Under the pieces are notes generated by a model. It was given only the letters and a program-made list of their open reading frames with translations, was not told the DNA's origin and made no database searches. Of a stretch of 64,000 bases of DNA, positions 7,436 through 36,838 are shown piece after piece. The position numbers and the translations under genes are program-made. Position 1 is the stretch's first letter, and each line of letters begins with the position of its first letter. Source of the DNA: Gammaproteobacteria bacterium (GTDB taxonomy: Bacteria; Pseudomonadota; Gammaproteobacteria; Eutrophobiales; Eutrophobiaceae); NCBI GenBank assembly GCA_965221695.1, contig OZ244905.1, forward strand, positions 762,355 to 826,354. Reading direction: 5' to 3'.

Positions 7436-7486
7436 AGCATGTTGCCTGTTTCAGGACAGTAGCAAATCCGTTACACTGCGCTTGAA

Positions 7487-7978: not shown

Positions 7979-8035
7979 TGATCAGGGCACTGCGCAACGG
8001 TATGTGCCAGATGGAACAGGCCAGGGTATTCTCCA

Positions 8036-8134: not shown

Positions 8135-8162
8135 GGCATAGGTTACACAGCATATAGCTTGT

Positions 8163-17363: not shown

Positions 17364-18233
17364 TCAGCGGGTCGGCATCAGGCCCATGTCGAATTGCAGG
17401 TGGCTGAACGGCACCGGGATGTTGTAGCGGGCAGCCAGGCCGGCATCGTCGGATTGTTCATAATGGCCTATCAGCGAACTCTTGGTGGCGAACACCGCGT
17501 CTGAGTCCAGATACTCGTCGCCTTCCGAAAATACGTGCGTTGTCAGCGGCTCGTAACCGTCCGCAGAGACGATGAAATGGATATGGGCCGGGCGCATGCC
17601 GTGACGGCTGCTGGTTCGCAACAAATCACCAACCGGTCCGTCAGTGGGTATGGAATAGGATAGCGGTTTTTCCGTGACAAAAGCGTAATTGCCTTGCTCA
17701 TCCGTGGTGAAGATGCCGCGCATATTGTTCTCCGGCATGGTTTGATCCTGCACATCATACGTACCGTTCGCTGCGGTTTGCCAGATGTCCAGCTTTGCTC
17801 CCGCTATGGGATTACCGTCCGGGTCAGTCACCCTGCCCTGTACCAGCGCAATATCTCCACCATAATGCCGCTTGATGATGCTGGCGCCGTTTTCGTATTC
17901 CGGCGCGCCGGGCACGTAAAACGGCCCTAACACTGTGGACTCGGTGCCCTGGCCGGACTTGGGGTGGTTGATCGCATCAACCAGCATGGATACGCCCAGC
18001 ACGTCTGACAACAGGATAAATTCCTGGCGCTTATCGTCGCAGATCTGGCCTGTAGCGGTTAGGAACATGATGGCCTTGAACCATTCCTCTTCCGTCAACT
18101 CCACATCCTTGACAAACGCATGGAGGTGTTTGAGCAACGAGGTAATGATCTGCCTGAACCTTGGATCTTCTGTCTTGGAACCGTATTCTTCCAACACGAT
18201 TTCCGTCAGATTATCGATTGTAAAATCACGCAT
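17364..18233 (-). CDS. Intradiol ring-cleavage dioxygenase (hydroxyquinol 1,2-dioxygenase / catechol 1,2-dioxygenase family)
   Basis: 289 aa. Intradiol dioxygenase motifs GPFY, the Tyr/His iron-ligand region, and RPAHIHF. GGGGAGGAAATC RBS. Confidence 0.85.
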   Translation of the reverse strand: MRDFTIDNLTEIVLEEYGSKTEDPRFRQIITSLLKHLHAFVKDVELTEEEWFKAIMFLTATGQICDDKRQEFILLSDVLGVSMLVDAINHPKSGQGTESTVLGPFYVPGAPEYENGASIIKRHYGGDIALVQGRVTDPDGNPIAGAKLDIWQTAANGTYDVQDQTMPENNMRGIFTTDEQGNYAFVTEKPLSYSIPTDGPVGDLLRTSSRHGMRPAHIHFIVSADGYEPLTTHVFSEGDEYLDSDAVFATKSSLIGHYEQSDDAGLAARYNIPVPFSHLQFDMGLMPTR

Positions 18234-18319: not shown

Positions 18320-19618
18320 TTAACGCCCTTTTGCGCGCAATGCCTGCACGGTGAAATCTGTTTCTTTAAATGGTTTTTCCGGCAATATCGCCTTGAACTG
18401 CAGGGTCGTGCAGTGCAGCGCCTGGATATCGATCATGGAGACCGCATCGATGATCGGCACGCCCATGCCCCGGTTGGAGGGATGATGCCGGTCCGGGTGG
18501 GAGTAGGCGGCGATGGCGACTTTCCACAGGTTGCCAGGCCTGTCGAAGATGTGGCCATAGACCGGTAACATGGTCTGGGCGTCCAGGTAATAGCGACGCT
18601 TGGACAACGGATGTTGTTTCCAGTAAGGCTCGGCCTCCAGGATATACGCCTTGCGCACGTGCCAGGTGACATTCGGAAAGCAGTTACCCTTGCCGTGGAA
18701 GCCGATGAACCTGAAACCATCGAGCTGTTGCCCCACCTCCTCCAGTTGCTGCTCGTCATGATGGAAGAACGGCAGCAGTACCCAGGTGATGCCTTTATAG
18801 GTCCACTTCTGATCCATGATGCGGCCGTTATAACCTAAAAAGTCCTCGATCATAATGTCACTGCCGAGGAATGCGTCCGTGGTCTGTCCAGACGCCAGGC
18901 GGCGCACACGCCGGTGGCCGGACAGGTACAGCCAGACCTGCTCCGGCTTGGTATCGTCTTCCAGTCGTTGTACCAGCAGTTGCGTCCCGCGCAGGTCGGG
19001 CGGCGCCAGTACTCTCAGGTACAGGCCGTGGTAGATTTCGGACGGATTTTTCGGCATCGACGGAATCGGCTCCTGCACATGCCTGTGCATAAACTTCAGC
19101 GAACTGGCATAGAAGGACAACTCTCTCTCGATTTTGTCATGCCGTATATTCCTGTATTGCCAGTAAAATCCATCCACCTCACCGCTGTCGTAAGAATAGG
19201 TATAGCGCAGGTTCCAGGCCAGCTTGTCCCCTGCCCTGGGATCGTCAAGTTGCGGCTCTCTGGGGAACGGCCGTCCCGCGATGTAATTGTGAATAATCCC
19301 CGGCGCATCGCCGAGTTCGGTTTGATCCAGGTAACGCCTCGTTGCGTCGATATACGCAGCATGCGTGGACATGGATATGACCTCGCCCGTGGTGATGGTC
19401 AAAAACTCATCACTGATCAGGTCCACCAGCTTAGGCGCCAGAATAGGGCGGAATGACTCCACATTTTCTTTTGTGATCACCGTGCCCGGCGCGGGGTTAA
19501 GCGAGGCAACATGTGCCAGGTCAAAGGTGAACGACTCCTCGACCACATCTGCCCTGAGCGCGGCGGTACCGGCCAGAAGACCAAGCAACGATACGCAGAT
19601 AAATCGTCGAGAAGTCAT
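18320..19618 (-). CDS. DUF1329-family secreted protein (paralog 1)
   Basis: 432 aa. Signal peptide. Strongly paralogous to 24278-25585 (RRLASGQTTDAFLGSDIMIEDFLGYN vs RRLATGQTTDAFLGTDIMIEDFEGYN; ALHCTTLQFKA vs AKHCTTGQFKG). Confidence 0.8.
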   Translation of the reverse strand: MTSRRFICVSLLGLLAGTAALRADVVEESFTFDLAHVASLNPAPGTVITKENVESFRPILAPKLVDLISDEFLTITTGEVISMSTHAAYIDATRRYLDQTELGDAPGIIHNYIAGRPFPREPQLDDPRAGDKLAWNLRYTYSYDSGEVDGFYWQYRNIRHDKIERELSFYASSLKFMHRHVQEPIPSMPKNPSEIYHGLYLRVLAPPDLRGTQLLVQRLEDDTKPEQVWLYLSGHRRVRRLASGQTTDAFLGSDIMIEDFLGYNGRIMDQKWTYKGITWVLLPFFHHDEQQLEEVGQQLDGFRFIGFHGKGNCFPNVTWHVRKAYILEAEPYWKQHPLSKRRYYLDAQTMLPVYGHIFDRPGNLWKVAIAAYSHPDRHHPSNRGMGVPIIDAVSMIDIQALHCTTLQFKAILPEKPFKETDFTVQALRAKGR

Positions 19619-19688: not shown

Positions 19689-21239
19689 CTAATCTGTGGC
19701 ATCTTCGGGCTTTTTCATAAACAGGTTGACATCATGGGGATTGACCAGGTCTCCAACCGTCCAGCCGTTGATGTCGTATTCATCCATACACTGCTGGGCA
19801 AAGTCCTTGAGTTCCTGCTCCAGGCCCGAGGCCTGCGCCGATATCAACGCATCAATGCGGATGTTTTCGTTATTGCCCGAGTAATTGCGTTCATACAGTT
19901 CATGGCGGCCACCGAACTCCGTGCCGATGGCATCCCACAACAGGCGCATGGTCTTGACCCGGTCCTCCGCATCGTGGCCGTAAGAGCCCCGCAGGTATTT
20001 ATCCAGGTAGACTTTCAGCTCCGGCACGTTGAAATCCGTCGCATGGGAGTTCAGGTAGATCAGGCCGCTGGCAACCATGTTCTCGATTAATTCCTTGGCG
20101 CGGGGATAGGCCATCGTCATCAGCACCCGATATACCTGCCCGGCATGGCCGTTCGGCACTTTTGCGCCCTTGAAATCGTCAGGCATGCCGCACATCGCAT
20201 CCGACAAGGCCCAGAACAGGTGGCGCAACACGATCATTTCACCTATCGCCACTTGCACGCCGCGATACCCCTTGGAACCGGTGATCTCCAGGGCCTTCAT
20301 GAACAGACCGGTAATGAAATCAAATTTTACCGCAAGCCGGGTGCAGCCGTGAAAGGCAAAGGTATAACCCCAACCGGAAGTACCCAGGAACGTACTGGCC
20401 GCCTCCATGTCCTGGTAGATAAAGACGTCTTCCCAGCGCATCAGCGCATTGTCCAGAACCAGTATCGCATCATTCTCATCCAGGCGGCTGGACAGCGGGT
20501 TGTCGAACGGGCTGCCCATCACCTCCGCCGCGTACGCGTAGGACGGCCGGCAAATCAGCTTCACCCCCGGCGTGTCCATGCTCAACATGCCGGAAATCGC
20601 AAAACGCTTGTCCTTGACGGGGATGGGTCCGTACTGTCCAAGGAAATTGTAGTGTGTCAGGGCCGACCCGGTCGCCACCACCTTGGCCCCGGAAATGATG
20701 ATGCCCTCATCCGTTTCCCCGGTACAGTGCATGTAGACATCCTCGATCTCTTCATGGGGTTTATGCCGGTCCACCGGGGGATTCACCAGGGCATGGTTCA
20801 GGAACGGCACACTTTCCTGGGCGCGCCGGTACCAGTTCAGGGCATTGCCGGCATAGTCACCGAAATACTCCTGGTTGAATCCCAGGGTCAGCATCAGGCT
20901 GGCCTTGTAATCGGGGGTACGGCCCATCCAGCCGTAAGTCATGCGCGCCCACTGGGCGATGGCCTCGCGCTGGGCGATCACATCTTCGCGGCTCCTGGCG
21001 ACCTTGAAGTAAGGATGGGTAAAACCGCCGTTGCCGGTATCGGTATCGGTACGCAGGTGCGGAAATTGCTCTTCATTATGCAGCGCATCGTAGAGGCGCG
21101 CCATCATCCTTGCGGGGTTGCGGAAGGCCGGGTGTTCGGTCACGTCGCGGACCCGCTCCCCGTAAATCCAGATCTCCCGGTCGTCTTTCAGGTTCTCAAG
21201 AAATTCAGCGCCGGTATAGGGGCGAATATCGTTATCCAC
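19689..21239 (-). CDS. 4-hydroxyphenylacetate 3-hydroxylase (HpaB)-family FADH2-dependent aromatic monooxygenase, oxygenase component
   Basis: 516 aa, the family-typical length. Family-level assignment by global resemblance to HpaB / chlorophenol / nitrophenol two-component monooxygenases. Confidence 0.8.
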   Translation of the reverse strand: MDNDIRPYTGAEFLENLKDDREIWIYGERVRDVTEHPAFRNPARMMARLYDALHNEEQFPHLRTDTDTGNGGFTHPYFKVARSREDVIAQREAIAQWARMTYGWMGRTPDYKASLMLTLGFNQEYFGDYAGNALNWYRRAQESVPFLNHALVNPPVDRHKPHEEIEDVYMHCTGETDEGIIISGAKVVATGSALTHYNFLGQYGPIPVKDKRFAISGMLSMDTPGVKLICRPSYAYAAEVMGSPFDNPLSSRLDENDAILVLDNALMRWEDVFIYQDMEAASTFLGTSGWGYTFAFHGCTRLAVKFDFITGLFMKALEITGSKGYRGVQVAIGEMIVLRHLFWALSDAMCGMPDDFKGAKVPNGHAGQVYRVLMTMAYPRAKELIENMVASGLIYLNSHATDFNVPELKVYLDKYLRGSYGHDAEDRVKTMRLLWDAIGTEFGGRHELYERNYSGNNENIRIDALISAQASGLEQELKDFAQQCMDEYDINGWTVGDLVNPHDVNLFMKKPEDATD

Positions 21240-21275: not shown

Positions 21276-23513
21276 CTAGCTCACCTTCCGCGCCTTGTAC
21301 TCCTCCGGACTTTCCGCGGTTTTGTATTTTTCCACTGCGATCTTCCGATGCAGGATGACCGGTTGTTCCGCGACCGGCGGTGATGCTATCTCCGCAGGGT
21401 AACAACCCATGGTTTGCTTAGCCGGGTCCATGTTGGTGCGTTTCGAGAACTGGCGCCGGTTGGTACGCTCGGCGGGGATAATATTGCCTTCACTGTCGCT
21501 GTCGAGGTCCCACCACCACTTCTTCACCGGGTTGATCAAACCGTTGCCCACCACGTCATCCAGTTTTGCGATCCAGCTTCGGGTAAACGGCAGGTTCATC
21601 GCCGCCCACAGGAACGGCCTCTCAGCCAACACCCCCTCAATGTTCCAGGGGCAGGTCTTCATACAGCGGCCGCACAGCGCGCCGGCGGCGTTGGTAATCC
21701 GATAACGCGCGCATTTTTCCACGTCCGGCTTCCACATTTCATAGCCGTTGAACATGATTTTGTCGCCGTAGGGGATCGCCTGGCACGGGCACTCCCGCGC
21801 GCACTTGGTGCATTTCTCACAAAAATCCTGCAAGCCGAAATCGATCGGTTTATCCGGCAATAACGGCAAATCAGTCGTGATAATACCGGACTTGAAGCGC
21901 GGACCCACGTAGGGATTCAACACCAGTTCACCGATGCGGCTCAGTTCGCCCAGCCCCGCTTCCAGGATGATAGGAATATGCAGAACATCCTGGTCCATCA
22001 CGCTGTGGCCCCGGGCGGAATACCCCAGGGAGCGGATATGGGCGCCGACAACACCGCCGATGAGCTGGGCGCGCAAGTAGGCGCGCATGCTTTGTGCGCC
22101 ACTGATCCAGTCATCCCCGCTGGCGCCTTCCATGGTCTCGTAGCCCTGGTCCACCAGGATGGCGATTCCGTACTTGTGGTACGGCTTTATCTCCGAACCG
22201 TCGGTATCGTGGGAATACCAGGCATAGTCGGGCAGCTCGCAGATGCCCACCATGTCCGCTCCCATGTAATACAGGGCGGCCTTCACCGCCTCGGCGTTTT
22301 TTTTCGGATCATCGGTACCGGGGGCAATAGCATCCGCTTCCTTGCCATACTGCAGCGGCACCATTGCACCCAGCGGCGGTATCATCGCATGGCCGTATGG
22401 CGACTTGGTGATCATGCGAAAATTGTGCAATTCCTGCTGCGGTTTATCACCGAGATCGCCCAGGGCAGCGCGGATAAACATATCGTGACGTTTGGGAACC
22501 CGCGGCACGTTCGGCCGGTCAATAAACGTAGTGGTGGTGTCCTGCGTTTTCAGTTTTTCCATCGGATAAGGACCCAGGCGGAACGGCCTGTTTTTGAACA
22601 GCTTGCCCTTGTAGCCCGGTCGCGCCCCGCCCATTCCCAGCCACCAGCCCGGGCCATGAGACTTCAGCGATTGCATCATCCCGCGTTGCGCCAGCGGTTT
22701 ATCGGCCGCCAGCTCCATGGTTGTCGAGACCACGGCCATACCGAATTGATCCCCAAGGTAGGGGTTGGTGACCTTGCCACCGCCGTTGGCGCCGGTTACC
22801 TCTCCCAGGCCGCTGCAAAGCAACAGGTAATCGAGATCGAGGTCGCTTGCCGATGCGGTGTGCAATGTCGCCTCATATCCCAGAAAACGGATGTAATTCA
22901 CCATCACCGCCGCCGCTTCGGCCACTCTTAGCGCTGCCCGCTGTGGCTGGGTACCGACCAGCCAGGTTTCGCTCTCAGCATGAGATTCCGGTTCCCTGGT
23001 GTACTCGAACAGTAGGACCAGCGCATAGCCATGACTGAAATCCTTGTTCGCGTCCTCCATGGAACGCTGCCAGGCTTCCTGGCCTTCCCGGACGGTAAAC
23101 TCTGCCATCGCATTGGCCGCCGACCCGGCCTGGTATTCTTTTTCCTGCGCTTGCGCCAGCGACTCATTGATGATGGGTTGTGCCAGTATCGCTTGTTCGG
23201 GTATCGCGCAGGTCGCCGCCATACTGACATCGAGGTTGTAACAACCGGCTTTCAGGTGATTGGCGCGTTCTTGCGGGTCTGACGGAATGGGCGCCTGCTT
23301 GGGCGCCGGGTCGCCCAGGCGCATGCGGTCGAACAGGTCGAGGTATTCACGGAACGCGCCGGCCATGGATTCCGGATTGCCGGGCGTAACCGCTTCCCGC
23401 GTTCGTTGCCCTGCAGCCGGTGAATAGTCGGGTATGGAATTACCGCGTGCCAGCCGTTCCAGCGGGAATGGACCCATGTGCATGGCACGATGTTTATGGG
23501 AAAAGAGTCGCAT
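21276..23513 (-). CDS. Reductive dehalogenase-family protein, long 'catabolic/aerobic' type (NpRdhA-like; cobalamin + two [4Fe-4S])
   Basis: About 745 aa. C-terminal Fe-S motifs FCEKCTKCARECPCQAIP (CxxCxxCxxxCP) and CGRCMKTCPWN (CxxCxxxCP), the arrangement diagnostic of RdhA/QueG-type enzymes. The long N-terminal extension fits the self-contained catabolic RdhA class. No TAT signal or RdhB anchor is present. The start is ambiguous (TTG at 23522, ATG at 23513/23483/23477). Confidence 0.6.
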   Translation of the reverse strand: MRLFSHKHRAMHMGPFPLERLARGNSIPDYSPAAGQRTREAVTPGNPESMAGAFREYLDLFDRMRLGDPAPKQAPIPSDPQERANHLKAGCYNLDVSMAATCAIPEQAILAQPIINESLAQAQEKEYQAGSAANAMAEFTVREGQEAWQRSMEDANKDFSHGYALVLLFEYTREPESHAESETWLVGTQPQRAALRVAEAAAVMVNYIRFLGYEATLHTASASDLDLDYLLLCSGLGEVTGANGGGKVTNPYLGDQFGMAVVSTTMELAADKPLAQRGMMQSLKSHGPGWWLGMGGARPGYKGKLFKNRPFRLGPYPMEKLKTQDTTTTFIDRPNVPRVPKRHDMFIRAALGDLGDKPQQELHNFRMITKSPYGHAMIPPLGAMVPLQYGKEADAIAPGTDDPKKNAEAVKAALYYMGADMVGICELPDYAWYSHDTDGSEIKPYHKYGIAILVDQGYETMEGASGDDWISGAQSMRAYLRAQLIGGVVGAHIRSLGYSARGHSVMDQDVLHIPIILEAGLGELSRIGELVLNPYVGPRFKSGIITTDLPLLPDKPIDFGLQDFCEKCTKCARECPCQAIPYGDKIMFNGYEMWKPDVEKCARYRITNAAGALCGRCMKTCPWNIEGVLAERPFLWAAMNLPFTRSWIAKLDDVVGNGLINPVKKWWWDLDSDSEGNIIPAERTNRRQFSKRTNMDPAKQTMGCYPAEIASPPVAEQPVILHRKIAVEKYKTAESPEEYKARKVS

Positions 23514-23580
23514 TTCAATCAATCGCCAATGTTATGATTCGATGTTCGATAACGGGTTTGGATGCTGCCCCTGTTGATCT

Positions 23581-24174
23581 TTATGTTTTTTGCAGTCCGA
23601 GTTCGCGCAAGTAGTCATGCACGAAATCAATCCGGTCATTGCCCCAGAATATCTGGTCGCCTTGCACAAATGTCGGCACGCCGATCACACCGGCTTCCTG
23701 CGCCTCCTGCCAGTTGTCCTCCAGGACCTTCTGCCTGGCCGGATCATCCAGTGACGCACTGAACTCATCGGGGTCTAGGCCACACTCACGGGCGATGTCC
23801 ACCAGGGTATCAAGCTGTCCAATATCCTTACCCAGCGCCCATTCGGTATCCATCACCCGGTTGATATAGTCTCGCAGGCAGCCTTTTTCTTCGGCCAATA
23901 GAGAACCAACACCCGCCGGAGTCGGATCAGTGGTAATGGGTGGAGGGTTGCAAGGGATATTCATCCGTTTTGCCCAGCGGGCAACATCCTGGCGGGTAAG
24001 CGGGATTTTGACCTTTGCCCGGTCCGGCGCCGAGCGGCCGTTCCATCCTGCCAGCGGCCGCCAAACCAGGTTGACATGGTAGTCATCCACCAGGCTGAAC
24101 ATGGTCTTGCTGGCGAGATAACAATAAGGACTTCGAAAATTGAAGAAAAACTTTAAATCAACAGACTCCCTCAC
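23581..24174 (-). CDS. DsbA-like thioredoxin-fold protein, 2-hydroxychromene-2-carboxylate (HCCA) isomerase / kappa-GST-like family
   Basis: 197 aa. N-terminal hallmark DLKFFFNFRSPYCYLA (FxFxSPxxYL). C-terminal VPTF...G...FWG. Confidence 0.7.
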   Translation of the reverse strand: MRESVDLKFFFNFRSPYCYLASKTMFSLVDDYHVNLVWRPLAGWNGRSAPDRAKVKIPLTRQDVARWAKRMNIPCNPPPITTDPTPAGVGSLLAEEKGCLRDYINRVMDTEWALGKDIGQLDTLVDIARECGLDPDEFSASLDDPARQKVLEDNWQEAQEAGVIGVPTFVQGDQIFWGNDRIDFVHDYLRELGLQKT

Positions 24175-24277: not shown

Positions 24278-25585
24278 TTACCTGCCGCTCTTGCGCAGGT
24301 TTTGCACCGTGAACATCTGCGGCGGGTTCAACGTGGGATCCAACTGGCCCTTGAACTGGCCGGTGGTGCAGTGTTTTGCCTGCACGTCATACATCATGAA
24401 GCAATTATCGATGGCGACGCCGGAACCCTTGTTACCGGGCAAGTGCCGGTCCGGATAGGCCTGGCAGATGGAAAACGACTTCCACAGGTCGCCCTTGCGG
24501 TCGAACTCGGCCTGGCGCGGAATGGTGTATGTCTGCGCATCGATATACATTACGCGCCGGCTCAACGGGTGATTCGGATCCTTCGGCGTCCCGTGCAGCT
24601 CATAGACCTTGCGCAGTTCCCAGGTGGTCTTAGGATAACAACCATCCACGTCAACGAACTGGTAACCATCGGGTTCGGGCGGCATATCGGTGGCCAGTTC
24701 CAGCTCGTCATGGTTATGGAACGGCAGAAAACCGTTCTTTGTGCCGATATACTCCCAGTTGTAGTCGGATACGCGGTTGTTGTAGCCTTCAAAGTCCTCG
24801 ATCATGATATCCGTGCCCAGGAATGCATCCGTCGTCTGCCCCGTGGCCAGACGCCGTACTCGCCGCTGGAAACCCAGGTACAGCCAGGCGTCATCCCGCT
24901 TCAGGTCGTTCTTGTAACGATGAATGAGAAGCTGGGTATTGGCGATATCAAACGGCTCCAGCGCGCGCACATAAATTGAGCGGAACAATTGCGCGGGATT
25001 GTCTTCAAACTCCGGAACCGGTTCCTGGTTCACCCGATGTTTCCAATTCAGGAAATGGAAGCTCCACTTGATAGTGCGTTCGAGCTTTCCTGATTTGGCG
25101 TTCCTGAACTTCCAGTAGAACGGCGAGATTGCGGCGTTATCGCCCCAGTTATAACCGTACTGGTAATTCCAGGCGACTTTCAGTCCAGCCTGGGGGTCAT
25201 TCACATCCGGTTCAGCAGGAAATGCCCGCCCGGCAACAAAATTATCCACCAGCCCATCCGCATTCAAGGATGGTTGATTGTTGACCGCTTCCATGGTTGC
25301 CTTGATATAGTTCGGGTGTAACTCCAATGATTCCGTTACCTTAGTCTGCAATGCCGTCTCACCGTTTTTGATATGGTCGTACAACGCCGGATCGAGAATC
25401 TCCTTGAACTGCTCCACGTTACCCTGGTCGATGACCATCCCGGGCGTGTATCCTGGAAACTCCGGTGTCCAGTTTTCATAAGGATAAAACGATTTCCTTA
25501 CATCTTCTTCGGTAAAATCGGCTGAGACCGCCAGGCTCAGGGCAACCAGCGGCATAACAGCGAGATACTTGACATACTTGAACAT
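24278..25585 (-). CDS. DUF1329-family secreted protein (paralog 2)
   Basis: 435 aa. Signal peptide MFKYVKYLAVMPLVALSLAVSA. Paralog of 18320-19618. Confidence 0.8.
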   Translation of the reverse strand: MFKYVKYLAVMPLVALSLAVSADFTEEDVRKSFYPYENWTPEFPGYTPGMVIDQGNVEQFKEILDPALYDHIKNGETALQTKVTESLELHPNYIKATMEAVNNQPSLNADGLVDNFVAGRAFPAEPDVNDPQAGLKVAWNYQYGYNWGDNAAISPFYWKFRNAKSGKLERTIKWSFHFLNWKHRVNQEPVPEFEDNPAQLFRSIYVRALEPFDIANTQLLIHRYKNDLKRDDAWLYLGFQRRVRRLATGQTTDAFLGTDIMIEDFEGYNNRVSDYNWEYIGTKNGFLPFHNHDELELATDMPPEPDGYQFVDVDGCYPKTTWELRKVYELHGTPKDPNHPLSRRVMYIDAQTYTIPRQAEFDRKGDLWKSFSICQAYPDRHLPGNKGSGVAIDNCFMMYDVQAKHCTTGQFKGQLDPTLNPPQMFTVQNLRKSGR

Positions 25586-25615
25586 AATAATTAAGCCTCC
25601 TTCCTGAAAATAGTG

Positions 25616-27769
25616 TTAGAAGCGATAGCGAATCAGAACTTGAAACTCGTCCTCGTGCTGCGCCATGCCGATGGGACCGGAACGGAATCGGCCCAGTGGT
25701 TCAAAACCCCTGCGGTCTCCGCAACTGGAACCCACAACATAGGGTTCGGTACAACCGGGGCCATTAGTAAACGGCGGAAATGCATTGGAAGTACGACCGT
25801 CATCCGCGACTCGGGCGCCGGTGCCCAACTTGATATTGGCGCCGAAGATCAAACGCAGGTTATCGTTGATCAGGTAGTCCACACCCGGGGCCACGACGGC
25901 CGCCTTGGCGCGAAAATCATACGCGGTGATAATTCGCGGCAGTACCCGGTCGTTCCTGAAGAAACCCTGGAACAGGAAAGTGCCGATATAACCATTCTTC
26001 CAGTCCTGGAAACCGATCTGCTGCCCGCTGATGGGATGACTGATTGATTTGTGATCAAGCAGGTGCTGGCCGAAAATCTGGGCCGACAGCAGGAAGGTCC
26101 TGTTCGGGTTCAACCAGCGGATATAGGTGGGGCGGTCCCAACCGATGACCCAGCGAATCACGTCTGATTCGGAATTCAGGTCAGATGCCGAGGTATCGGC
26201 AAACTCCTCGCCACTGGTATGGGCCAGTTCCACCCGGAACGCCGACTTCAGTGGATCAATGTAAAAGTCCGCCGAGCCGCCTATCAGGGTAACCCTTGGG
26301 AAGTGGATATCAAATGCCGGCACATATTGCCTGACCCGTTCAAGACCGGGCGTATCGGTAGGATCAAGCGGGCTGAAGCCCAACGGGCATCCGGCAAACG
26401 CCGGGCTCCACAGTCCCGGCGCAGGTGTAGTCGGTGGGCAACCCTGGGGTGGAATCAAGGTTCCCAGGAACGGGTTGACGCCTTCGATCTCGGCGCGTAA
26501 AGCCGGGAGTTGCGAATAAAATGTCATCGCGTTAAGCGAGAAACCCACGCCCCTGAACACACCTTCCAAACGCACCCCGCCCTGGTCGAAGTCCCAGCCG
26601 GGCAAGTGGATATCACGGATACCGATAACATGACGGGGGAAATCCGTTGCCAGGTTCCCATCCGGGGCAAGATGACCGGCAAAGTTATTGACGGTACACC
26701 CATTGTCCCAACAATTCTTCAGCGCCCGGAACAGGTCACCGGCAAGCAGGATATTGTAAGGCTGCCCGCCTTGACCCAGGTTGTTCGGACGGAATTTCTC
26801 GAAGTTCCAGATCACCTGGAAGTTCAGGTCATCAAAGGCGCCTACAGCGCCGGCACGGTACTCCGCAGAAAAGATCCCCAGCGGGATACGGCTGTCCTCG
26901 AACTCCTCGTAAATACTCTGGATAGAAAAATCGATCGGGTTGACCTGGTCCAGTACCCGAAACAGGTCGGTGCGGCCCCAGACCACCTGCTGGCGGCCGA
27001 TGCGGAAGTTGATCTCATCGCCGTTGTTGACCGGCATGGTCGCGTCAACGTAGATCTCCCGCAACCAACCATGGTCATCAGTGAATTCTGGAAAGCGCAG
27101 GTCGTCCAGGGTCGCATCCATATAACCGGGGATACAACCGCGGGGATCGACATCACAGGGCCGGGTCGGGGTAAACAGTTCCAACCCGCCGCCGTACTCA
27201 CCGTTATTGTTGCTGGCTGCAAGTTCGCCACCCACCCTTTTCAGTCCTTCATTGGGATTGACTGTGGTATCGAAACCAAAGCCTCCGCCCCCGGGCAGGG
27301 CCGGCACACCCGCAGAGACCGGTGAGAAGCCCCAGGGCGCATCCACGGTGGGATGATTTGTGAGTTCAGAAACATTGACCATTTGCAACTCGGCATCAGG
27401 ACCGAATCCGACCGGAAGATAGACCCCTGAACCGGAACTGGTGGTCGTGACCGGTCCTCCCGAACGCTTGCCAAAGGTATCGTCGTTCAGGTCGTAGACG
27501 CCATCATAGGTGGCTCGCAGGGTTCCATGAAAGGACAACTCGGAGAACAATCCCGTGGGCTTGAATATTTTCGACCACTCAATCTGACCGCGTATGCGTT
27601 CCTTGGTAATGCCGTAACTGTCACGGTGGTGGTAGGTGTTGTCGACAAAGCCGTGGATTGTCAGGGTGCCGTCACTCGAGTTCCACGCAGATACCGACAG
27701 TGGCGCGATGGCAACAGCGCCTGCGATCGCACTCGATAACAGGGTGAGAGAAAACCTGCGGATATTCAT
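25616..27769 (-). CDS. DUF1302-family outer-membrane beta-barrel protein
   Basis: 717 aa. Signal peptide ...AIAPLSVSA. C-terminal aromatic ...LIRYRF typical of OM barrels. Classical partner of DUF1329. Confidence 0.8.
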   Translation of the reverse strand: MNIRRFSLTLLSSAIAGAVAIAPLSVSAWNSSDGTLTIHGFVDNTYHHRDSYGITKERIRGQIEWSKIFKPTGLFSELSFHGTLRATYDGVYDLNDDTFGKRSGGPVTTTSSGSGVYLPVGFGPDAELQMVNVSELTNHPTVDAPWGFSPVSAGVPALPGGGGFGFDTTVNPNEGLKRVGGELAASNNNGEYGGGLELFTPTRPCDVDPRGCIPGYMDATLDDLRFPEFTDDHGWLREIYVDATMPVNNGDEINFRIGRQQVVWGRTDLFRVLDQVNPIDFSIQSIYEEFEDSRIPLGIFSAEYRAGAVGAFDDLNFQVIWNFEKFRPNNLGQGGQPYNILLAGDLFRALKNCWDNGCTVNNFAGHLAPDGNLATDFPRHVIGIRDIHLPGWDFDQGGVRLEGVFRGVGFSLNAMTFYSQLPALRAEIEGVNPFLGTLIPPQGCPPTTPAPGLWSPAFAGCPLGFSPLDPTDTPGLERVRQYVPAFDIHFPRVTLIGGSADFYIDPLKSAFRVELAHTSGEEFADTSASDLNSESDVIRWVIGWDRPTYIRWLNPNRTFLLSAQIFGQHLLDHKSISHPISGQQIGFQDWKNGYIGTFLFQGFFRNDRVLPRIITAYDFRAKAAVVAPGVDYLINDNLRLIFGANIKLGTGARVADDGRTSNAFPPFTNGPGCTEPYVVGSSCGDRRGFEPLGRFRSGPIGMAQHEDEFQVLIRYRF

Positions 27770-27813
27770 CGTTTATCCCCCTTCGCTAAGTGAACTTGAT
27801 TAGTGTAGTTATG

Positions 27814-27840
27814 AAAATATCGATATTTTTTCATTATAGC
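27814..27840. promoter_or_regulatory. Putative operator/promoter element (site A): AAAATATCGATATTTT perfect palindrome followed by TTTTTTC...TTATAGC, 45-70 bp upstream of the DUF1302 start
   Basis: 16-bp perfect palindrome. The ATATCGATATTTTTTC(N)TTATAGC string is shared with site B (38200-38245). The core is shared with site C (4463-4474). Confidence 0.5.
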
Positions 27841-27933
27841 CTCTTTATTCGCCATTACCATGAATATTTTTTGGGCGGGGACAGGACGTGCCTGTCTCCA
27901 CCTATTGCATAATGATTCCCCAATTCCTCGCTG

Positions 27934-30333
27934 TCAGTCCATGTCAATCTCATCGATCATCGAACCAGTGCCTTTTTCCCAGCGCTCCTCTCCAGCCTTC
28001 ATGATGAATTTCGGCTTGAAAATGTTCACCCAGGCTGGCACCAGGAACATCGCAGACGCCATGTTCATGATCAGCATGATGATAAGCAGGCGGGCCGCGT
28101 CCGCCTGGAAACGCAATTCGGAAATGAACACCCACATGATAATTCCGCCCACCAGGGTCGTAGCAGTCAGCGCAATGGCAACGCCGGTGGTGCTGACCGC
28201 GCGCCGGATCGCGTCCTGCACATTGTCGGCTACATGCATCTCCTCCTTGATGCGGTCCATCATGTAAATCGCGTAATCCACCCCAAGACCGATACCCACG
28301 GCTATCATCGGCACGGTATTGACGTTCAGCCCCATGTTCAGCAATCCCATGCAGGCATAGGTGAGCGTGGTGGCGAAGGTCATGGATACCAGCATCATGA
28401 AGCCGGAGTGGAACGAACCGTAAAACCAGAGAGTAAACGCCAGGATCAGCACCAATACCGCGGGCACGACGATGACATTGGTCTCAAAAGCCTCTTCGTT
28501 GATGGCCGCGGTCACCCCGACCGGGCCGCCTGCCAGGTCGATGTGCAGCCCCTCAATCCGGCTGCCGGTTGTATCTATCCATTCCTTGGCCATGTGGATC
28601 GCGCGCCGTATGGTCTCGCCTGTATGGTCCTTGTAATAGAACACCATGTTGGCCAGCCGGTCATCGGTATCGATATATTCCAGCAATGCGCCCTGGGTCG
28701 GCGCCGACATCATAAACATGAACAGCAGCCCGCCGATATTCTGGTCGATGGACGGGATCACCGCCCAACGCGGGTCATTGTTGCGAGTCATCTGGTTCAC
28801 CTGGGTCAGCAGGTTGTTGACCCCCTTCACACCGCCCAGTTTCGGGTCCAACAGCATGTGGTTCTGGAAATCCGCCAACGCTTTCATGATCTCCGGTTTT
28901 TTCAAACCACCTATTTCATCGGCGCGGGCAATGATGAACAGTTCCTCCGCTCCCGGAAAACGTTCATTGATCGCAGTGGATGAAACATTGAAATCATGGT
29001 CGTGATAGAGCAACGGTGAGCCCGGTTCCGGTTCCCCGATCTGCACCCAGGAACTGAAATACGTCGCGCAAAGAGCAATGATGAGACAGGTAATGAGCAC
29101 CGCTTTCGAACGTCCCCTGGTACCGACAACCTGGGCAAACTTGGGAAAGATCGCCCGCGCCAGGGTATGCTTGACGGCCACATCTTTGGGCCTTGGCAGT
29201 TCCGCCAGCAGCATCGGGATCACGATCAGCACGGTGACCACCATGCAGACCGCCCAGAACGACGCGTAAATGGCCATCTTGTCATTAATCGGCACCGAAC
29301 CCAAGCCGATGAGGTACAGCGCGGAGGCATCCGCAACGATGGCCAGCGCGCCGGGCCTGAACAACGCGTTGAAGGTGTTTCGGGCCGCTGGCACCTTCTC
29401 GCCGGTGCGCGACAACTCAAGGAAATAGCGTTCCATTTTCTGGATGCCGTGGGACATGGCGCGCGCAGAGATCAGAAACGGCACCACCAGCATCAGCGGA
29501 TCCAGGTTATAACCGAACACCCCCATGAAACCCACACCCCAGATACTGGTCAGGATCATGCCCAGCAACGGCAGCAGGATACCGTAAAGCCGGCGCGAGT
29601 AGAAAACCAGGATGCCCAGTACGATCAATATGGTATAGAAGAAGATGAGTAGGATATCGCCACTGTAGGAATCCACCCAACCCACCAGCACCGGGTGGCC
29701 GGTGGCGTGGATTTTCACTCCCGGCGCGGCCTCTTCCGCCCGGATCGCCTGGATTTCCTCAAACACCTTGCCGTAATCGAGCTGGCCTTCATTTAAGGTG
29801 CCCTTGATCAAGGCCGCTTTCATGTCCGGCGAAACCAGCAATCCGTAGACATTGGTACTGGCCAGCACGTCCCGTTGAATCTGCGCCAGTTGTTCTTCCG
29901 TGTATTCTTCGTGGTGCGGGTCGTAATAGTTCTGCGAACGGATGGTGCCATCCGGAGTCAGGAAGATCTTCCTGGTGTTGCGGTGGGTCAGGCTGGTCAC
30001 CAGGTTGTGGTTGATATTGGACACGCTGTCCAGCTTTTGGGTAATGCGGTGAATCCGGTCGAGGGCATCATTCGTGAAGATCGTCCCCTCCTCCACTTCC
30101 ATCGCCATGACGATGATATTGGCCCCGCCGAACGTATCGCGGATACTGTTATGCAGTTGTATGTACGGGTGTTCCTGGGGCAACAGGTCGGCAAAGTCCG
30201 AGAGCATGCGCACGGTGGGAATATTCCAGGCAAACATCGCGGTAATCAGGAATATCAGCGCCAGCACGAATTTCCGGTTGTTGAACAGGAAATTACCGAA
30301 TACCGGAAAAATCTGGCTGGTATCTAGTTTCAT
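27934..30333 (-). CDS. RND-superfamily exporter (MMPL/COG1033-like, two 6-TM bundles)
   Basis: 799 aa. Two hydrophobic multi-TM blocks separated by large soluble loops. Overlaps the upstream Ycf48-like gene by 4 nt. Confidence 0.8.
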   Translation of the reverse strand: MKLDTSQIFPVFGNFLFNNRKFVLALIFLITAMFAWNIPTVRMLSDFADLLPQEHPYIQLHNSIRDTFGGANIIVMAMEVEEGTIFTNDALDRIHRITQKLDSVSNINHNLVTSLTHRNTRKIFLTPDGTIRSQNYYDPHHEEYTEEQLAQIQRDVLASTNVYGLLVSPDMKAALIKGTLNEGQLDYGKVFEEIQAIRAEEAAPGVKIHATGHPVLVGWVDSYSGDILLIFFYTILIVLGILVFYSRRLYGILLPLLGMILTSIWGVGFMGVFGYNLDPLMLVVPFLISARAMSHGIQKMERYFLELSRTGEKVPAARNTFNALFRPGALAIVADASALYLIGLGSVPINDKMAIYASFWAVCMVVTVLIVIPMLLAELPRPKDVAVKHTLARAIFPKFAQVVGTRGRSKAVLITCLIIALCATYFSSWVQIGEPEPGSPLLYHDHDFNVSSTAINERFPGAEELFIIARADEIGGLKKPEIMKALADFQNHMLLDPKLGGVKGVNNLLTQVNQMTRNNDPRWAVIPSIDQNIGGLLFMFMMSAPTQGALLEYIDTDDRLANMVFYYKDHTGETIRRAIHMAKEWIDTTGSRIEGLHIDLAGGPVGVTAAINEEAFETNVIVVPAVLVLILAFTLWFYGSFHSGFMMLVSMTFATTLTYACMGLLNMGLNVNTVPMIAVGIGLGVDYAIYMMDRIKEEMHVADNVQDAIRRAVSTTGVAIALTATTLVGGIIMWVFISELRFQADAARLLIIMLIMNMASAMFLVPAWVNIFKPKFIMKAGEERWEKGTGSMIDEIDMD

Positions 30334-31319
30334 GATTTATCTCCCACCAGTTCCTGAGCTGAAAAAATTTCCAATACGCCTGCGGGTCCGCTCACGATCA
30401 AGCGCTGATCGGGTAACGGCATGATCCCGCGCAGGTACTGGCGGAACGGCCGGCCATGATCGAACGGCAACCACCTGTCTCCATCCAAACGGAAAATGCT
30501 GCCTTCACCACCGGTGACAAACAACTGGCCGTTGGCTTTTGCCAGCGTATACAATGTCACCAGGCTGCCGGTAGCTTGTGTCTCCCAGGTCTCTCCGCCA
30601 TCGTCCGTAGCCAGGACCACGCCGCCCAGGCCGGCGATCCAGCCCCGGTTCGGATCCTCAAAATACATGCTTTGCGGATAAAACTCGTCCGGCATCGGCG
30701 GCATGAATTCCCAGTTGGAGCCGGCATCGGCGGTTTTCAGCAAAGTGCCGAACTCGCCGGCGATATAGATGTTCTGATCATCGAAAAACTGGATGTCCGT
30801 AAAAATAATATCCTCATCCAGGGAGGTTACGTCCCAACTCACGCCGCCATCCCGGCTGACCGAGATGGTGGAAAAGCTGCCTACCACCCACAGGTTGCCG
30901 GCAGGGTCACACTGTATGGCCTGGGGCGCCTCCTCGGTCGCGAGTTGGCTCCTGTTCCAGCTCTCACCCTGGTCGTTCGACAGCCATACTTCACCTTCAA
31001 AGGCCAGCGCGGCAAACAGGCCACCGGCGCAACTGGTAATGTCCAGGAACGCCGGCCAGGAAGGGATTTGATAGCGTTGCCAGCTCGCGCCATCGTCTTG
31101 TGACGACAGGATGACACCACCGGAGCCGACTGCGACGATATTTTGCTGAAATGCACTGACGGCCTGGAAATTGTCGGTCCTGCGAATCGGGTTTTGCAGG
31201 GCTTTCTCGACCTCATCCAGCACCAACGGCGACTCGCAAGCGGATGCCAACACGCAGGCCACAGCCAACAGCCAGCGGCTTGCAAACCGGGCGCTCTCTT
31301 TGATGTAATTATTATTCAT
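30330..31319 (-). CDS. Ycf48-like BNR/Asp-box repeat lipoprotein (photosystem II stability/assembly-factor homolog)
   Basis: 329 aa. Lipobox LASAC. Four SxDxGxSW-type Asp-box repeats (SQDDGASW, SNDQGESW, SRDGGVSW, TDDGGETW, TADAGSNW). Confidence 0.8.
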   Translation of the reverse strand: MNNNYIKESARFASRWLLAVACVLASACESPLVLDEVEKALQNPIRRTDNFQAVSAFQQNIVAVGSGGVILSSQDDGASWQRYQIPSWPAFLDITSCAGGLFAALAFEGEVWLSNDQGESWNRSQLATEEAPQAIQCDPAGNLWVVGSFSTISVSRDGGVSWDVTSLDEDIIFTDIQFFDDQNIYIAGEFGTLLKTADAGSNWEFMPPMPDEFYPQSMYFEDPNRGWIAGLGGVVLATDDGGETWETQATGSLVTLYTLAKANGQLFVTGGEGSIFRLDGDRWLPFDHGRPFRQYLRGIMPLPDQRLIVSGPAGVLEIFSAQELVGDKS

Positions 31320-31523: not shown

Positions 31524-32312
31524 TCAAACCATCCGAAAACTGACCTTCCCCAAGTCCTGGAAGCGCACATTGATCGTATCGCCTTTGTCCAGAGCAACCG
31601 CCGCCGTGATTCCCCCGGTCATTATGAACGTCCCTGCGGGTATGGTCTCACCGCGCGCAGCCAGCATGTTCGCCAGCATCGCCACGCTCAGGGCAGGATG
31701 CCCCAACACTGCGGCGCCGGCGCCGGTCTCAACCACTTCTCCGTTTTTCTCCATCACCACCCCAAGGGCCGGCAAGTCCAGGGAGTCCGCGCCACGCAAG
31801 ACACTGCCGACGACAAAGCCTGCGGCGGAAGTATTATCGGCAATGACGCTCTTCAGGTCAAAACGAAAATTTTCATAGCGGGAATCGATGATCTCCAACG
31901 CCGCCGTAACAAAATCAACGGCTTGCAATACCTGGCCGATATGGCATCCGGGACCGGCCAGTTCCGCTTTTGTCACGACAGCCACCTCCGCTTCCACGCG
32001 CGGGTGGATAAACGCTGAGCAGTCAATCTCAGCGCCATCGGCGTAACCGCCGGTAGCAGGCAGGAAACCGTATACCGGATCGGACACCCCCATCTGCCGC
32101 ATCTTGGCCTGGGAGGTCAGGCCCATTTTCAGGCCGGCGATGCGGATGCCGCGTTCTTCTTTGCGCCGGCGGATCTCGTACTGGATGGCGTAGGCGTCCT
32201 CCCAGTCCAGTTCCGGGTAGTCATCGGTAATCTTCGTTACCGCTTGCCGGTTGAGTTCGGCATTCTCCAGCCGCTCGGCCAGTTGCCTGATGGTTTTTTG
32301 ATCCAGCGTCAT
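31524..32312 (-). CDS. 4-oxalocrotonate decarboxylase (XylI/DmpH-like)
   Basis: 262 aa. Collinear high similarity to XylI ([10 protein letters not shown]...GLKMGLTS...[21 protein letters not shown]...[27 protein letters not shown]). Position at the end of the meta operon. Confidence 0.85.
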
Positions 32313-33349
32313 TGCACTGCCTTTATTTCACGCCGCGCCCGCGCCATGTTCAGCGCAACGTCTTCGATCATGTCTTCCTGGCCGCCGATGGTCTTCATCT
32401 TCCCCAGCTCGACCAGGATGTCGCCCGAAGGCAGCTTGTATTTTTCACCGACGCGCTTCGCGTGCAGCAGGAACGAAGAGTAGACACCGGCATAACCCAT
32501 GATCAACGAGTCACGGTCGACCCGGATCAACTGGTCCATTATCGGCACCACCACATCTTCCGCAACGTTCATCAATTTGAATACATCCACGCCGGTTTTG
32601 ACGCCCATGCGGTCCAGCACCGCGTTGAACACCTCAAGCGGCGTGTTGCCGGCGCCGGCGCCCAGCCCCGCGGCGGAACCGTCAATCCGGTCGGCGCCCG
32701 CTTCGACTGCGGCCAGTGAATTGGCAATGCCCATTGCCAGGTTATGGTGCCCGTGAAAGCCAATCTCGGTATCGGCTTGCAGGCCGGCGCGCAATGCCCC
32801 GATGCGGGCCGTGACATCATCCGGCAGCATATAGCCGGCAGAATCGGTGCAGTAAATGCAGTTGGCGCCATAGGATTCCATCAATTTGCCCTGTTCAAGC
32901 AACTGTTCCGGTTCCACCATATGCGCCATCATCAGGAAACCGACGGTATCCAGGCCCAGTTTTCGAGCTGAACTGATATGTTGTTCCGAGACATCCGCCT
33001 CGGTGCAATGGGTCGCGACGCGGATGGTATGGACTCCACAATCCCGCGCCATGTTCAAATGATCCACGGTGCCGATACCCGGCAACAGCAAGGCCGACAC
33101 ATTTGCCTGCTTCATACGCGGCGTGACCGCTTGCAGGTACTCTTCATCGGAGCTGGCAGGAAAGCCGTAATTGATGGAGGCGCCACCCAGGCCATCGCCA
33201 TGGGTCACTTCGATAAGGTGGACGCCTGCGTCATCCAGCGCGGAAGCGACATCGATCATCTGCTCAGTCGTGATCTGGTGGCGCTTGGCATGCATCCCGT
33301 CGCGCAGGCACATATCATGCAGTTTTACTGTTTTTCCGTTTAGATTCAT
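32309..33349 (-). CDS. 4-hydroxy-2-oxovalerate aldolase (DmpG/MhpE/BphI-like)
   Basis: 346 aa. DRE-TIM N-terminus [13 protein letters not shown]...[13 protein letters not shown]. 4-nt overlap with the decarboxylase gene. Confidence 0.9.
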
Positions 33350-33392
33350 GGTGTTGTTGTATCAGTTTCGACTTGATCGCTGTTTTGTGGGG

Positions 33393-34301: not shown

Positions 34302-34327
34302 ATTCAGTTTACCCCTGTCCTCTATCC

Positions 34328-35119: not shown

Positions 35120-35148
35120 TATTTCTGTCACAGTGTCGGATTGAATTC

Positions 35149-36639: not shown

Positions 36640-36669
36640 TTTTTTCTGACTCCTATTACACCCCAATAT

Positions 36670-36838
36670 TATTCCCGCTTAAGCGGAAAGCCAGCTAACA
36701 AAGTATCGCCTGTCAGGCGATACGCTATCATACTGGACTCCCGCTTACGTGGGAGTAGTACGAGCATCGCTCCTACTCCAGTACCATTCCCGCGAAAGCG
36801 GGAATCCAGTGAAACAAACCGTCGCTTCAGCGACACTA
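36670..36838. repeat. REP-like compound hairpin repeat cluster, copy 4 (fills the HMSD-GlcG intergenic region)
   Basis: TTCCCGCTTAAGCGGGAAAG, GTATCGCCTGTCAGGCGATAC, CTCCCGCTTACGTGGGAG, TTCCCGCGAAAGCGGGAATCCAGTGAAAC, CGTCGCTTCAGCGACACTAT. Confidence 0.8.

Follow-up and report, generated by a model that had tools for sequence, protein, structure and literature searches.

The question raised by this locus is what a protein of about 745 residues with two iron-sulfur motifs, encoded among genes for the degradation of aromatic compounds, does for a bacterium of the family Eutrophobiaceae. We analysed the 64,000-nucleotide stretch of gammaproteobacterial DNA that carries its gene (assembly GCA_965221695.1, contig OZ244905.1, positions 762,355 to 826,354; hereafter the window), for which a first-pass annotation, made from the sequence, had proposed a reductive dehalogenase of the aerobic, catabolic type. 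By comparison with NpRdhA, the catabolic reductive dehalogenase of Nitratireductor pacificus pht-3B (PDB 4RAS, 6ZXU, 6ZXX and 6ZY1), we conclude that the gene, rdhA, probably encodes a soluble, cytoplasmic and monomeric dehalogenase, with a corrinoid and two [4Fe-4S] clusters, that acts on ortho-halophenols and feeds the ring-degradation enzymes of its own operon.

The assignment to the reductive dehalogenase family is supported, and each of the refuting conditions set by the first-pass annotation was examined and failed to overturn it. The NCBIfam model for these enzymes (TIGR02486) scores RdhA at 209.4 bits against a cut-off of 160.35, and the model for the epoxyqueuosine reductase QueG (TIGR00276) reaches 27 bits against a cut-off of 200; in Pfam only Fer4 domains are detected, all of them under their cut-offs. 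The best matches to RdhA among PDB sequences in a phmmer search are three sequences of NpRdhA (4RAS, 6ZXU and 6ZY0; E~1e-176), which align over residues 1 to 745 with an overall identity of 45%, a similarity well outside what chance would give. The respiratory enzyme PceA aligns to the C-terminal half of RdhA only (E=5e-27), and the match to the QueG sequence in the PDB is marginal (E=0.017). Among 8000 scored candidates, 4266 homologues of RdhA have E values below 1e-20, and several of these are already labelled 'reductive dehalogenase' by their sources. Modelling with AlphaFold2, which the first-pass annotation had called for, gave a structure built on 49 homologues (predicted local-distance difference test, pLDDT, 83.7; predicted template-modelling score, pTM, 0.91) whose fold matches NpRdhA across both lobes: the top 14 Foldseek matches are all chains of NpRdhA (6ZXU/4RAS), with template-modelling (TM) scores of 0.86 (query-normalised) and 0.91-0.93 (target-normalised); the scores are 0.34 for PceA and 0.19-0.20 for QueG.

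Catabolic reductive dehalogenases are defined by an extra, vestigial N-terminal copy of the corrinoid-binding lobe (PMC10463259). From the full-length alignment with NpRdhA and the superposition of the model, RdhA is predicted to share this two-lobed architecture, in which the vestigial copy precedes a functional core. The protein had been likened to the self-standing enzymes of both N. pacificus and Comamonas; the first half of this comparison holds, while BhbA of Comamonas carries a fused reductase (PMC10463259). Because RdhA, like NpRdhA and unlike BhbA, lacks such a fusion, its sequence places it with the NpRdhA-type enzymes of the 'truncated' subgroup.

The open reading frame (ORF) previously reported at 21276-23522 is real and of about the stated length, but it lies on the minus strand, and its 748 codons are counted from the first TTG. 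The start codon is almost certainly the ATG at 23513, three codons in, since its methionine lines up with Met1 of NpRdhA and the resulting product is 100% identical to a 745-residue protein in the database (P0001); use of the in-frame upstream TTG at 23522 as an alternative start is unlikely. The gene and its parts are as follows.

21276 to 23513, minus strand: rdhA, stop codon included, for a predicted 745-residue cytoplasmic reductive dehalogenase of the NpRdhA type (catabolic, 'truncated').
22614 to 23513, minus strand: N-terminal lobe, residues ~1-300 (boundary approximate), the predicted equivalent of the vestigial, cobalamin-free duplicate of the corrinoid-binding domain.
23043 to 23204, minus strand: clade-wide insertion of ~44 residues relative to NpRdhA (residues 104-157), within the N-terminal lobe.
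21834 to 22613, minus strand: predicted functional corrinoid-binding core, residues ~301-560 (boundary approximate), holding S475, Y479, K541 and the pocket substitutions.
21786 to 21821, minus strand: first [4Fe-4S] motif, CEKCTKCARECP, with C565, C568, C571 and C575, cysteines that are invariant in 112 homologues.
21648 to 21713, minus strand: second [4Fe-4S] motif, C601 ... C614-G-R-C617-M-K-T-C621-P, which includes R605.

The core is 53% identical to residues 251-510 of NpRdhA, and the N-terminal lobe 38% identical over residues 1-250. The insertion region spans 54 residues in RdhA, which is also the median among homologues, against 10 in NpRdhA, and is modelled at low confidence (pLDDT 51-68 over residues 120-160). 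Both iron-sulfur strings quoted by the first-pass annotation are present: FCEKCTKCARECPCQAIP contains the motif CxxCxxCxxxCP at residues 565-576 (nucleotides 21786-21821), and CGRCMKTCPWN contains CxxCxxxCP at residues 614-622 in the 745-residue numbering; all eight cluster cysteines are conserved. No second copy of rdhA is found within the window. The ratio of nonsynonymous to synonymous substitution rates (dN/dS) is 0.07-0.12 in pairwise comparisons with 12 orthologues, indicating that the gene is under strong purifying selection.

To compare active sites, the sequence of NpRdhA was rebuilt from the phmmer alignment and aligned with RdhA and its top matches of at least 650 residues, 112 homologues in all, giving 114 aligned sequences. 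The alignment shows the core to be conserved, including the substrate-binding and proton-donating residues: S422, Y426, K488 and R552 of NpRdhA correspond to S475 (nucleotides 22089-22091), Y479 (22077-22079), K541 (21891-21893) and R605 (21699-21701) of RdhA. The last three positions and the eight cluster cysteines do not vary among the 112 homologues, and the first is serine in 108 of them. In NpRdhA, the phenolic hydroxyl is bound by S422, K488 and R552, and the proton comes from Y426 (PMC7565698); the conservation of this tetrad suggests that ortho-halophenol chemistry is retained in RdhA. The pocket and its entrance differ at F290M, K307L, F310M, P311I, A419G and N452V (NpRdhA numbering), five or six of which line the pocket, and the full pocket signature MFLMIGSMYVKR is common to 70 of the 114 aligned sequences. 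RdhA thus stands for a large uncharacterised subclade that shares this signature and lacks the carboxylate-binding lysine. In NpRdhA, one ligand pose has its benzoate carboxylate salt-bridged to K307, and the second bromine sits in a pocket lined by A419 (PMC7565698). Judged by these substitutions, the pocket of RdhA would be more hydrophobic than that of NpRdhA and without the carboxylate-binding lysine, and its preference for the para substituent appears to have moved away from carboxylates, while di-ortho-halogenated substrates should still fit. Since the predicted pocket is more hydrophobic and without K307, a neutral bromophenol, a bromohydroquinone or a bromotyrosine-derived phenolic is more likely to be the natural substrate than a halobenzoate.

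The neighbourhood of rdhA is consistent with such a role. All genes from 17.3 to 38 kb lie on the minus strand, as rdhA does, and are given here in the order of transcription, rdhA itself falling between the DsbA-fold gene and the HpaB-family gene.

37266 to 38054, minus strand: LigF-like glutathione S-transferase (GST).
36841 to 37269, minus strand: HbpS/GlcG-like (DUF336) protein, flanked by the LigF-like GST gene and that of the lower-pathway aldehyde dehydrogenase.
31524 to 36666, minus strand: lower meta-cleavage-type pathway genes (from 35149-36666 to 31524-32312), syntenic in relatives.
24278 to 31319, minus strand: AmeABCD-like four-part hydrophobe transporter, consisting of the next four genes.
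30330 to 31319, minus strand: BNR/Ycf48-like propeller, transporter part.
27934 to 30333, minus strand: HAE3/MMPL pump of the resistance-nodulation-division (RND) type, transporter part.
25616 to 27769, minus strand: DUF1302 protein, transporter part.
24278 to 25585, minus strand: DUF1329 protein, transporter part.
23581 to 24174, minus strand: DsbA-fold protein (PF01323) resembling kappa-GST and 2-hydroxychromene-2-carboxylate isomerase, directly upstream of rdhA.
19689 to 21239, minus strand: oxygenase subunit of a two-component flavin monooxygenase of the HpaB family (phenol ortho-hydroxylase type), 36 bp downstream of rdhA.
18320 to 19618, minus strand: second DUF1329 (LolA-like) protein, periplasmic or outer-membrane, syntenic in relatives.
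17364 to 18233, minus strand: intradiol ring-cleavage dioxygenase, hydroxyquinol 1,2-dioxygenase type.

From the common strand and the short gaps that separate rdhA from its two flanking genes (36 bp and 67 bp), we infer that rdhA and its neighbours are co-transcribed. An HpaB monooxygenase and an intradiol dioxygenase had both been placed next to rdhA; both are present, but only the former adjoins it, the second DUF1329 gene lying between the two. The HpaB homologue scores 671 bits on TIGR02310, under the equivalog cut-off of 885, and its best matches are PDB 4OO2 (E=8e-188) and E. coli HpaB (E=4e-176). The positions of R113, Y117 and H155 of the E. coli enzyme, to which we assume the roles familiar from the HpaB literature, are conserved, and the lid loop at 207-217 differs; the sequence thus indicates an HpaB-family enzyme whose substrate need not be 4-hydroxyphenylacetate. 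The dioxygenase can be specified further, as it is closest to the hydroxyquinol type and not to the catechol type: it matches hydroxyquinol and 6-chlorohydroxyquinol 1,2-dioxygenases as a group at E=8e-85 to 1e-70 (PnpC, 3N9T, E=8e-85; 6-chlorohydroxyquinol dioxygenase, 8R2X, E=1e-76), and catechol 1,2-dioxygenases at ~1e-44. The lower pathway comprises two proteins of the FAA-hydrolase family (hydratase/decarboxylase type), a 4-hydroxy-2-oxovalerate aldolase, an acylating acetaldehyde dehydrogenase and an aldehyde dehydrogenase.

Two elements of the neighbourhood had gone unmentioned in the earlier account, namely the AmeABCD-like transporter and the DsbA-fold gene that adjoins rdhA. The product of the latter is closest to a glutathione-dependent 2-hydroxychromene-2-carboxylate isomerase (2IMD, E=1.5e-16) and carries SPYC at the position of the CxxC of DsbA, and is therefore of the kappa-GST type; our guess is that it either deals with quinone or hydroxyquinol intermediates in a glutathione-dependent way or carries out an isomerisation. 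Orthologues of the LigF-like GST, 60-75% identical, are found near rdhA homologues in other Gammaproteobacteria (loci L018, L025 and L036). The space between the aldehyde dehydrogenase and HbpS/GlcG-like genes (36670-36830) holds three short GC-rich hairpins, ttcccgcttaagcggaaa, ctcccgcttacgtgggag and ttcccgcgaaagcgggaa, which resemble intergenic palindromes of the repetitive extragenic palindromic (REP) type.

A scan of one genome per species yielded 378 loci encoding relatives of RdhA, and the window proteins were compared by tblastn with the best 80 of these. About 15 species-level metagenome-assembled genomes (MAGs) keep the entire cluster in synteny: the block from the dioxygenase to the aldolase is preserved in L001-L012, L014 and L034, all with an RdhA identity of 82% or more, and in L085 (77% RdhA identity), where three extra genes are inserted. 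This conserved synteny with phenol-degrading genes agrees with the catabolic rather than respiratory role proposed in the first-pass annotation. The extra genes of L085 (7060-9415, between the DUF1329 and DsbA-like genes) encode an alpha/beta hydrolase, a cupin resembling 3-hydroxyanthranilate dioxygenase and an ACMSD-like amidohydrolase, a hint that an extradiol route of the aminophenol type can be connected to the cluster. A lineage with 75% RdhA identity keeps the lower pathway, the transporter, the DsbA-like protein and RdhA, while the HpaB and dioxygenase genes are replaced by others; the downstream pathway is therefore not fixed. The cultured Pseudomaricurvus alkylphenolicus (L081, 62% RdhA identity) has the order RND, DUF1302, DUF1329, DSBA, GST and TetR, then the alpha and beta subunits of a 2-oxoacid:ferredoxin oxidoreductase, a 7Fe ferredoxin, RdhA and GST, so that AmeABCD-like genes are kept upstream of rdhA down to this level of identity. 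The DsbA-like gene adjoins rdhA in L001-L015 and L034 and lies nearby in L019, L028, L029, L035 and L036; it is the partner most often kept beside rdhA and, with the transporter, is more widely conserved in the RdhA clade than HpaB. As judged from the 75% lineage and P. alkylphenolicus, the durable partners of the RdhA clade are the transporter and the two proteins of the glutathione-transferase fold, and the genes for ring hydroxylation and cleavage are a lineage-specific addition.

A reductive dehalogenase needs a source of electrons, and here the earlier statement that no reductase domain or ferredoxin gene is adjacent to rdhA holds: the nearest ferredoxin gene is 17.7 kb away. RdhA ends at residue 745 with no reductase domain at its C-terminus, and no Fer2, NAD_binding or FAD_binding domain is found in it; it thus lacks the C-terminal module of the phthalate-dioxygenase-reductase (PDOR) type (FMN/NAD-binding plus 2Fe-2S) that marks the self-sufficient subgroup. 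The trait of the 'truncated' subgroup is clustering with a ferredoxin oxidoreductase and ferredoxins, as in N. pacificus, where the NpRdhA gene is neighboured by genes for one ferredoxin oxidoreductase and a pair of ferredoxins (PMC10463259), and this arrangement is likewise not found in the window. Apart from those of RdhA, the window has just two iron-sulfur motifs, a Rieske centre in a VanA-like oxygenase (4603-5727) and a 2Fe-2S motif of the plant type in a small ORF (3303-3581), and no reductase resembling FNR or a flavin reductase is evident among the ORFs of the window, unannotated ones included. The second of these motifs belongs to the following gene.

3303 to 3566, minus strand: stand-alone 87-residue plant-type [2Fe-2S] ferredoxin, 17.7 kb from rdhA.

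This ferredoxin is a candidate electron carrier to RdhA. Its identity to the 2Fe-2S domain at the C-terminus of the PDOR module that is fused to certain RdhA homologues (P0046, P0074, P0094 and L025) is 59-67%, and a search with the reductase module of P0046 finds it as the sole match in the window. In related genomes it is kept as a free-standing gene, with 82-97% identity, and is syntenic at 11-20 kb from rdhA; in L083 it is retained, and no full-length VanA-like gene is called beside it. On the other side, the VanA-like Rieske oxygenase encoded nearby would be its expected partner, and many stand-alone ferredoxins annotated by JGI as ferredoxin subunits of vanillate demethylase resemble it just as closely, so that its link to RdhA is only a lead. 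The idea that the 92-residue ORF is what decay has left of a fused reductase or of VanB was considered and rejected, as the intact 87-residue gene is conserved and syntenic.

Relatives of RdhA point to another source. A 2-oxoacid:ferredoxin oxidoreductase is encoded beside rdhA in L025, L036, L062, L081 and L087, and a 7Fe ferredoxin was detected in L025, L081 and L087. The fused homologues P0046, P0074 and P0094 (61-63% identity) share the pocket signature of RdhA and, in a tree built by neighbour joining only, are nearest neighbours of unfused ones; since fused and unfused forms lie side by side within the clade, the arrangement of electron input appears to be evolutionarily labile, the reductase module being readily gained or lost. 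The fused homologues in L087 (4587-11802) and L025 are also preceded by 2-oxoacid:ferredoxin oxidoreductase genes and a 7Fe ferredoxin, and these proteins may have two alternative electron inputs. An unrelated 114-residue Fer2 protein follows the fused gene in L087; it was considered as the counterpart of the ferredoxin in the window and rejected, as the two have no significant similarity. The electron donor is the practical bottleneck in the use of 'truncated' enzymes, and the comparative data point to two candidate systems.

Taken together, these data suggest a model for the activity of RdhA, in which cofactor loading, activity, substrate, order of steps and electron donor are predictions. 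By analogy with NpRdhA, a low-potential ferredoxin would supply two electrons, which would reach the cobalamin by way of the two [4Fe-4S] clusters (C565/568/571/575 and C601/614/617/621). A phenol with an ortho halogen would be held by its hydroxyl through S475, K541 and R605 with the halogen, most likely bromine, facing the cobalt; the carbon-halogen bond would be cleaved reductively, and Y479, with K541, would protonate the carbon as the halide leaves. Removal of the ortho halogen would free a position for hydroxylation by the HpaB-type monooxygenase, after which the hydroxyquinol-type dioxygenase could open the ring, while the AmeABCD-like transporter and the glutathione-transferase-fold proteins would handle hydrophobic, quinone-prone substrates. 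The proposed order, in which RdhA acts first, follows from the argument that the hydroxylase cannot act first on substrates halogenated at both ortho positions. All characterised catabolic reductive dehalogenases act on ortho-halophenols, and JtRdhA of Jhaorihella thermophila together with the Hpa pathway of E. coli W supports growth on 3-bromo-4-hydroxyphenylacetate (PMC10463259); this combination is a direct precedent for the pairing of rdhA with hpaB. The natural operon would thus couple debromination to hydroxylation and ring cleavage in the way recently engineered in E. coli W.

Several observations weigh against this model. The HpaB and dioxygenase genes are found with rdhA only in that clade in which RdhA identity is 77% or more. 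The uncharacterised subclade of RdhA is only 45% identical to NpRdhA, and with five or six pocket residues differing between the two, the substrate range of NpRdhA cannot be transferred. The 64-kb window encodes no reductase, 2-oxoacid:ferredoxin oxidoreductase or 4Fe-4S ferredoxin, no flavin reductase for HpaB was found in it, and neither was a maleylacetate reductase. No cobalamin riboswitch and no gene for the uptake or biosynthesis of B12 was seen in the window; an RNA element beside the adjacent TonB receptor gene was considered, but Rfam at its gathering threshold returned nothing across the window, and the receptor itself resembles BtuB too weakly (35 bits against a cut-off of 600) for a link to B12 uptake to be claimed. 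Promoter and terminator scans performed no better than on shuffled sequence, so that co-transcription is read from strand and spacing only: over 16.8-32 kb the promoter counts are near the shuffled expectation and the terminator counts modestly higher, and no convincing minus-strand terminator was found between the operon genes in that interval.

Other explanations were weighed as well. The RdhA core and the two iron-sulfur motifs are common to RdhA and PceA, as would be expected of a respiratory enzyme for organohalide respiration, but PceA covers one lobe only, and RdhA has the additional N-terminal lobe of the catabolic family. No twin-arginine translocation (Tat) motif of the RRxFLK type occurs in its first 80 residues, no hydrophobic or transmembrane segment is present in the protein (maximum 19-residue Kyte-Doolittle mean 1.2), and no small ORF with several transmembrane segments resembling the RdhB membrane anchor lies between 16 and 32 kb, where the sole matches were rejected as antisense or internal to known genes. 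Inspection of motifs, hydropathy and ORFs therefore upholds the earlier statement that a Tat leader and an adjacent RdhB are lacking, and the absence of export and anchor signals points to a cytoplasmic location. As rdhA is moreover set among genes for an oxygen-dependent flavin monooxygenase and an intradiol dioxygenase, a respiratory function is highly improbable and effectively refuted. Less likely still is QueG or a generic ferredoxin-domain protein: the arrangement of iron-sulfur motifs is alike and Pfam sees nothing beyond sub-threshold Fer4 domains, but the TIGR00276 score, the marginal match to the QueG sequence in the PDB and the fold comparison refute this identity. A corrinoid enzyme of the RdhA fold could also carry out some other reduction of a phenolic compound, such as removal of a different ortho substituent or the reduction of an epoxide or quinol in the manner of QueG. 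The subclade is uncharacterised, its pocket differs at the six positions named above, and the class III cobalamin family already has in QueG a member that does not dehalogenate (PMC7585037). Yet the residues that position the phenolic hydroxyl and donate the proton are strictly conserved, A419G enlarges rather than fills the second-halogen pocket of NpRdhA (PMC7565698), and every characterised two-lobed member of the family is an ortho-halophenol dehalogenase (PMC10463259), which makes a different reaction improbable.

More weight attaches to an explanation that leaves the enzyme unchanged and alters its purpose, in which RdhA belongs to a tolerance system that detoxifies host or algal bromophenols together with the AmeABCD-like efflux and the GST-fold proteins and does not feed carbon metabolism. 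In Castellaniella, AmeABCD works as an exporter and makes the cell tolerant of hydrophobic substrates (PMC6394551), GST-fold proteins are found with rdhA again and again, the block conserved most widely consists of the transporter, the DsbA-like protein and RdhA while the ring-cleavage genes vary, and the missing maleylacetate reductase is also in keeping with detoxification. The layout of the locus argues the other way, since a hydroxylase and a ring-cleavage dioxygenase follow rdhA and a lower meta-pathway precedes it, on the same strand and in synteny, as an assimilatory route would have it. We regard detoxification as the sole function as rather unlikely, and favour dehalogenation that feeds ring degradation.

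A more specific proposal concerns the source of the halogenated phenols. The syntenic locus L009 is in APA_bin_93, which belongs to the APA_bin series of MAGs obtained from Aplysina aerophoba, a sponge rich in bromotyrosine alkaloids; more distant RdhA homologues occur in MAGs of Candidatus Poriferisodalis and Entotheonella, which we take to be sponge-associated taxa. A sponge origin is documented for L009 only and for the window itself rests on close relatedness. It is conceivable, if doubtful in its full form, that the operon is a dedicated aerobic route by which sponge-associated Gammaproteobacteria use the bromotyrosine phenolics of their host, with a distinct pocket for neutral substrates, the kappa-GST-like protein as a partner and, in place of a fused or adjacent reductase, the stand-alone PDOR-type 2Fe-2S ferredoxin as the donor. 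If so, sponge debromination would have a second arm that tolerates oxygen, beside the anaerobic route of Desulfoluna, and the catabolic reductive dehalogenases a new accessory protein. The fully syntenic MAG from A. aerophoba provides a concrete candidate for the aerobic turnover of sponge organobromines; the literature on sponge debromination that we found (the Desulfoluna studies) concerns anaerobes.

Other parts of the window merit brief mention. Near the ferredoxin and VanA-like genes, a sulfatase and a GMC oxidoreductase (5840-9716) and a small protein with a Tat signal (7487-7978; MDITRRDFIRL...) are conserved in relatives, and an alkylsulfatase joins this group in related genomes; the wider island may be concerned with aromatics that are sulfated or methoxylated. 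Between the ferredoxin gene and the divergent VanA-like oxygenase gene lies a pair of small ORFs (3606-4140, minus strand) that by eye resembles a hicA/hicB toxin-antitoxin pair; it has no PADLOC match and is absent from this position in L082, where the ferredoxin and VanA-like genes adjoin, and in L083. Farther away, a 749-residue ORF (46145-48394, plus strand) with no Pfam or PADLOC match lies in a patch of 39% GC, the window being otherwise 52-60% GC, directly upstream of a type I restriction-modification system (49563-57525) consisting of hsdM, hsdS, an M78/IrrE-like gene of the RmrA type and hsdR. The region 46145-57525 is probably a horizontally acquired defence island with one component of no known family.

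Comparison with known systems shows that the locus is no new type of system, as the catabolic family has been recognised ever since BhbA and NpRdhA were described. Its members form the soluble branch, tolerant of oxygen, of a family of value to bioremediation and to mechanistic work on B12 chemistry, and only a handful of them have been characterised. RdhA shares with NpRdhA the predicted two-lobed monomer, the lack of a Tat signal, of RdhB and of a fused reductase, and the conserved tetrad and eight cysteines; it differs in its 45% identity, the ~44-residue insertion in the N-terminal lobe, a hydrophobic pocket without the carboxylate lysine, and a genomic context with HpaB, a hydroxyquinol dioxygenase, a kappa-GST-like protein and an AmeABCD-like transporter. 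With the self-sufficient enzymes BhbA of Comamonas sp. 7D-2 and JtRdhA it would share family and ortho-halophenol chemistry, and BhbA is likewise set in an aerobic aromatic degradation cluster (PMC10463259). The likeness to PceA and other respiratory enzymes extends to the corrinoid core, the two [4Fe-4S] motifs and the tyrosine proton donor (PMC7565698), but those enzymes are Tat-exported, RdhB-anchored dimers without the vestigial lobe, to which about half of RdhA aligns. The transporter genes resemble AmeABCD of Castellaniella defragrans and the DUF1302/DUF1329/BNR/RND clusters of Shewanella and Pseudomonas, in which the same four protein families are encoded together and are tied to the catabolism of hydrophobic compounds; clusters of this type had no earlier link to a reductive dehalogenase in the literature searched. 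In the same literature, an incomplete set, we found no description of this rdhA cluster, whether as RdhA with hydroxyquinol or bromophenol or with sponge, Aplysina or bromotyrosine. What is new here is thus an uncharacterised member of a known family with a distinct pocket, in a previously undescribed but conserved operon context in sponge-associated Gammaproteobacteria.

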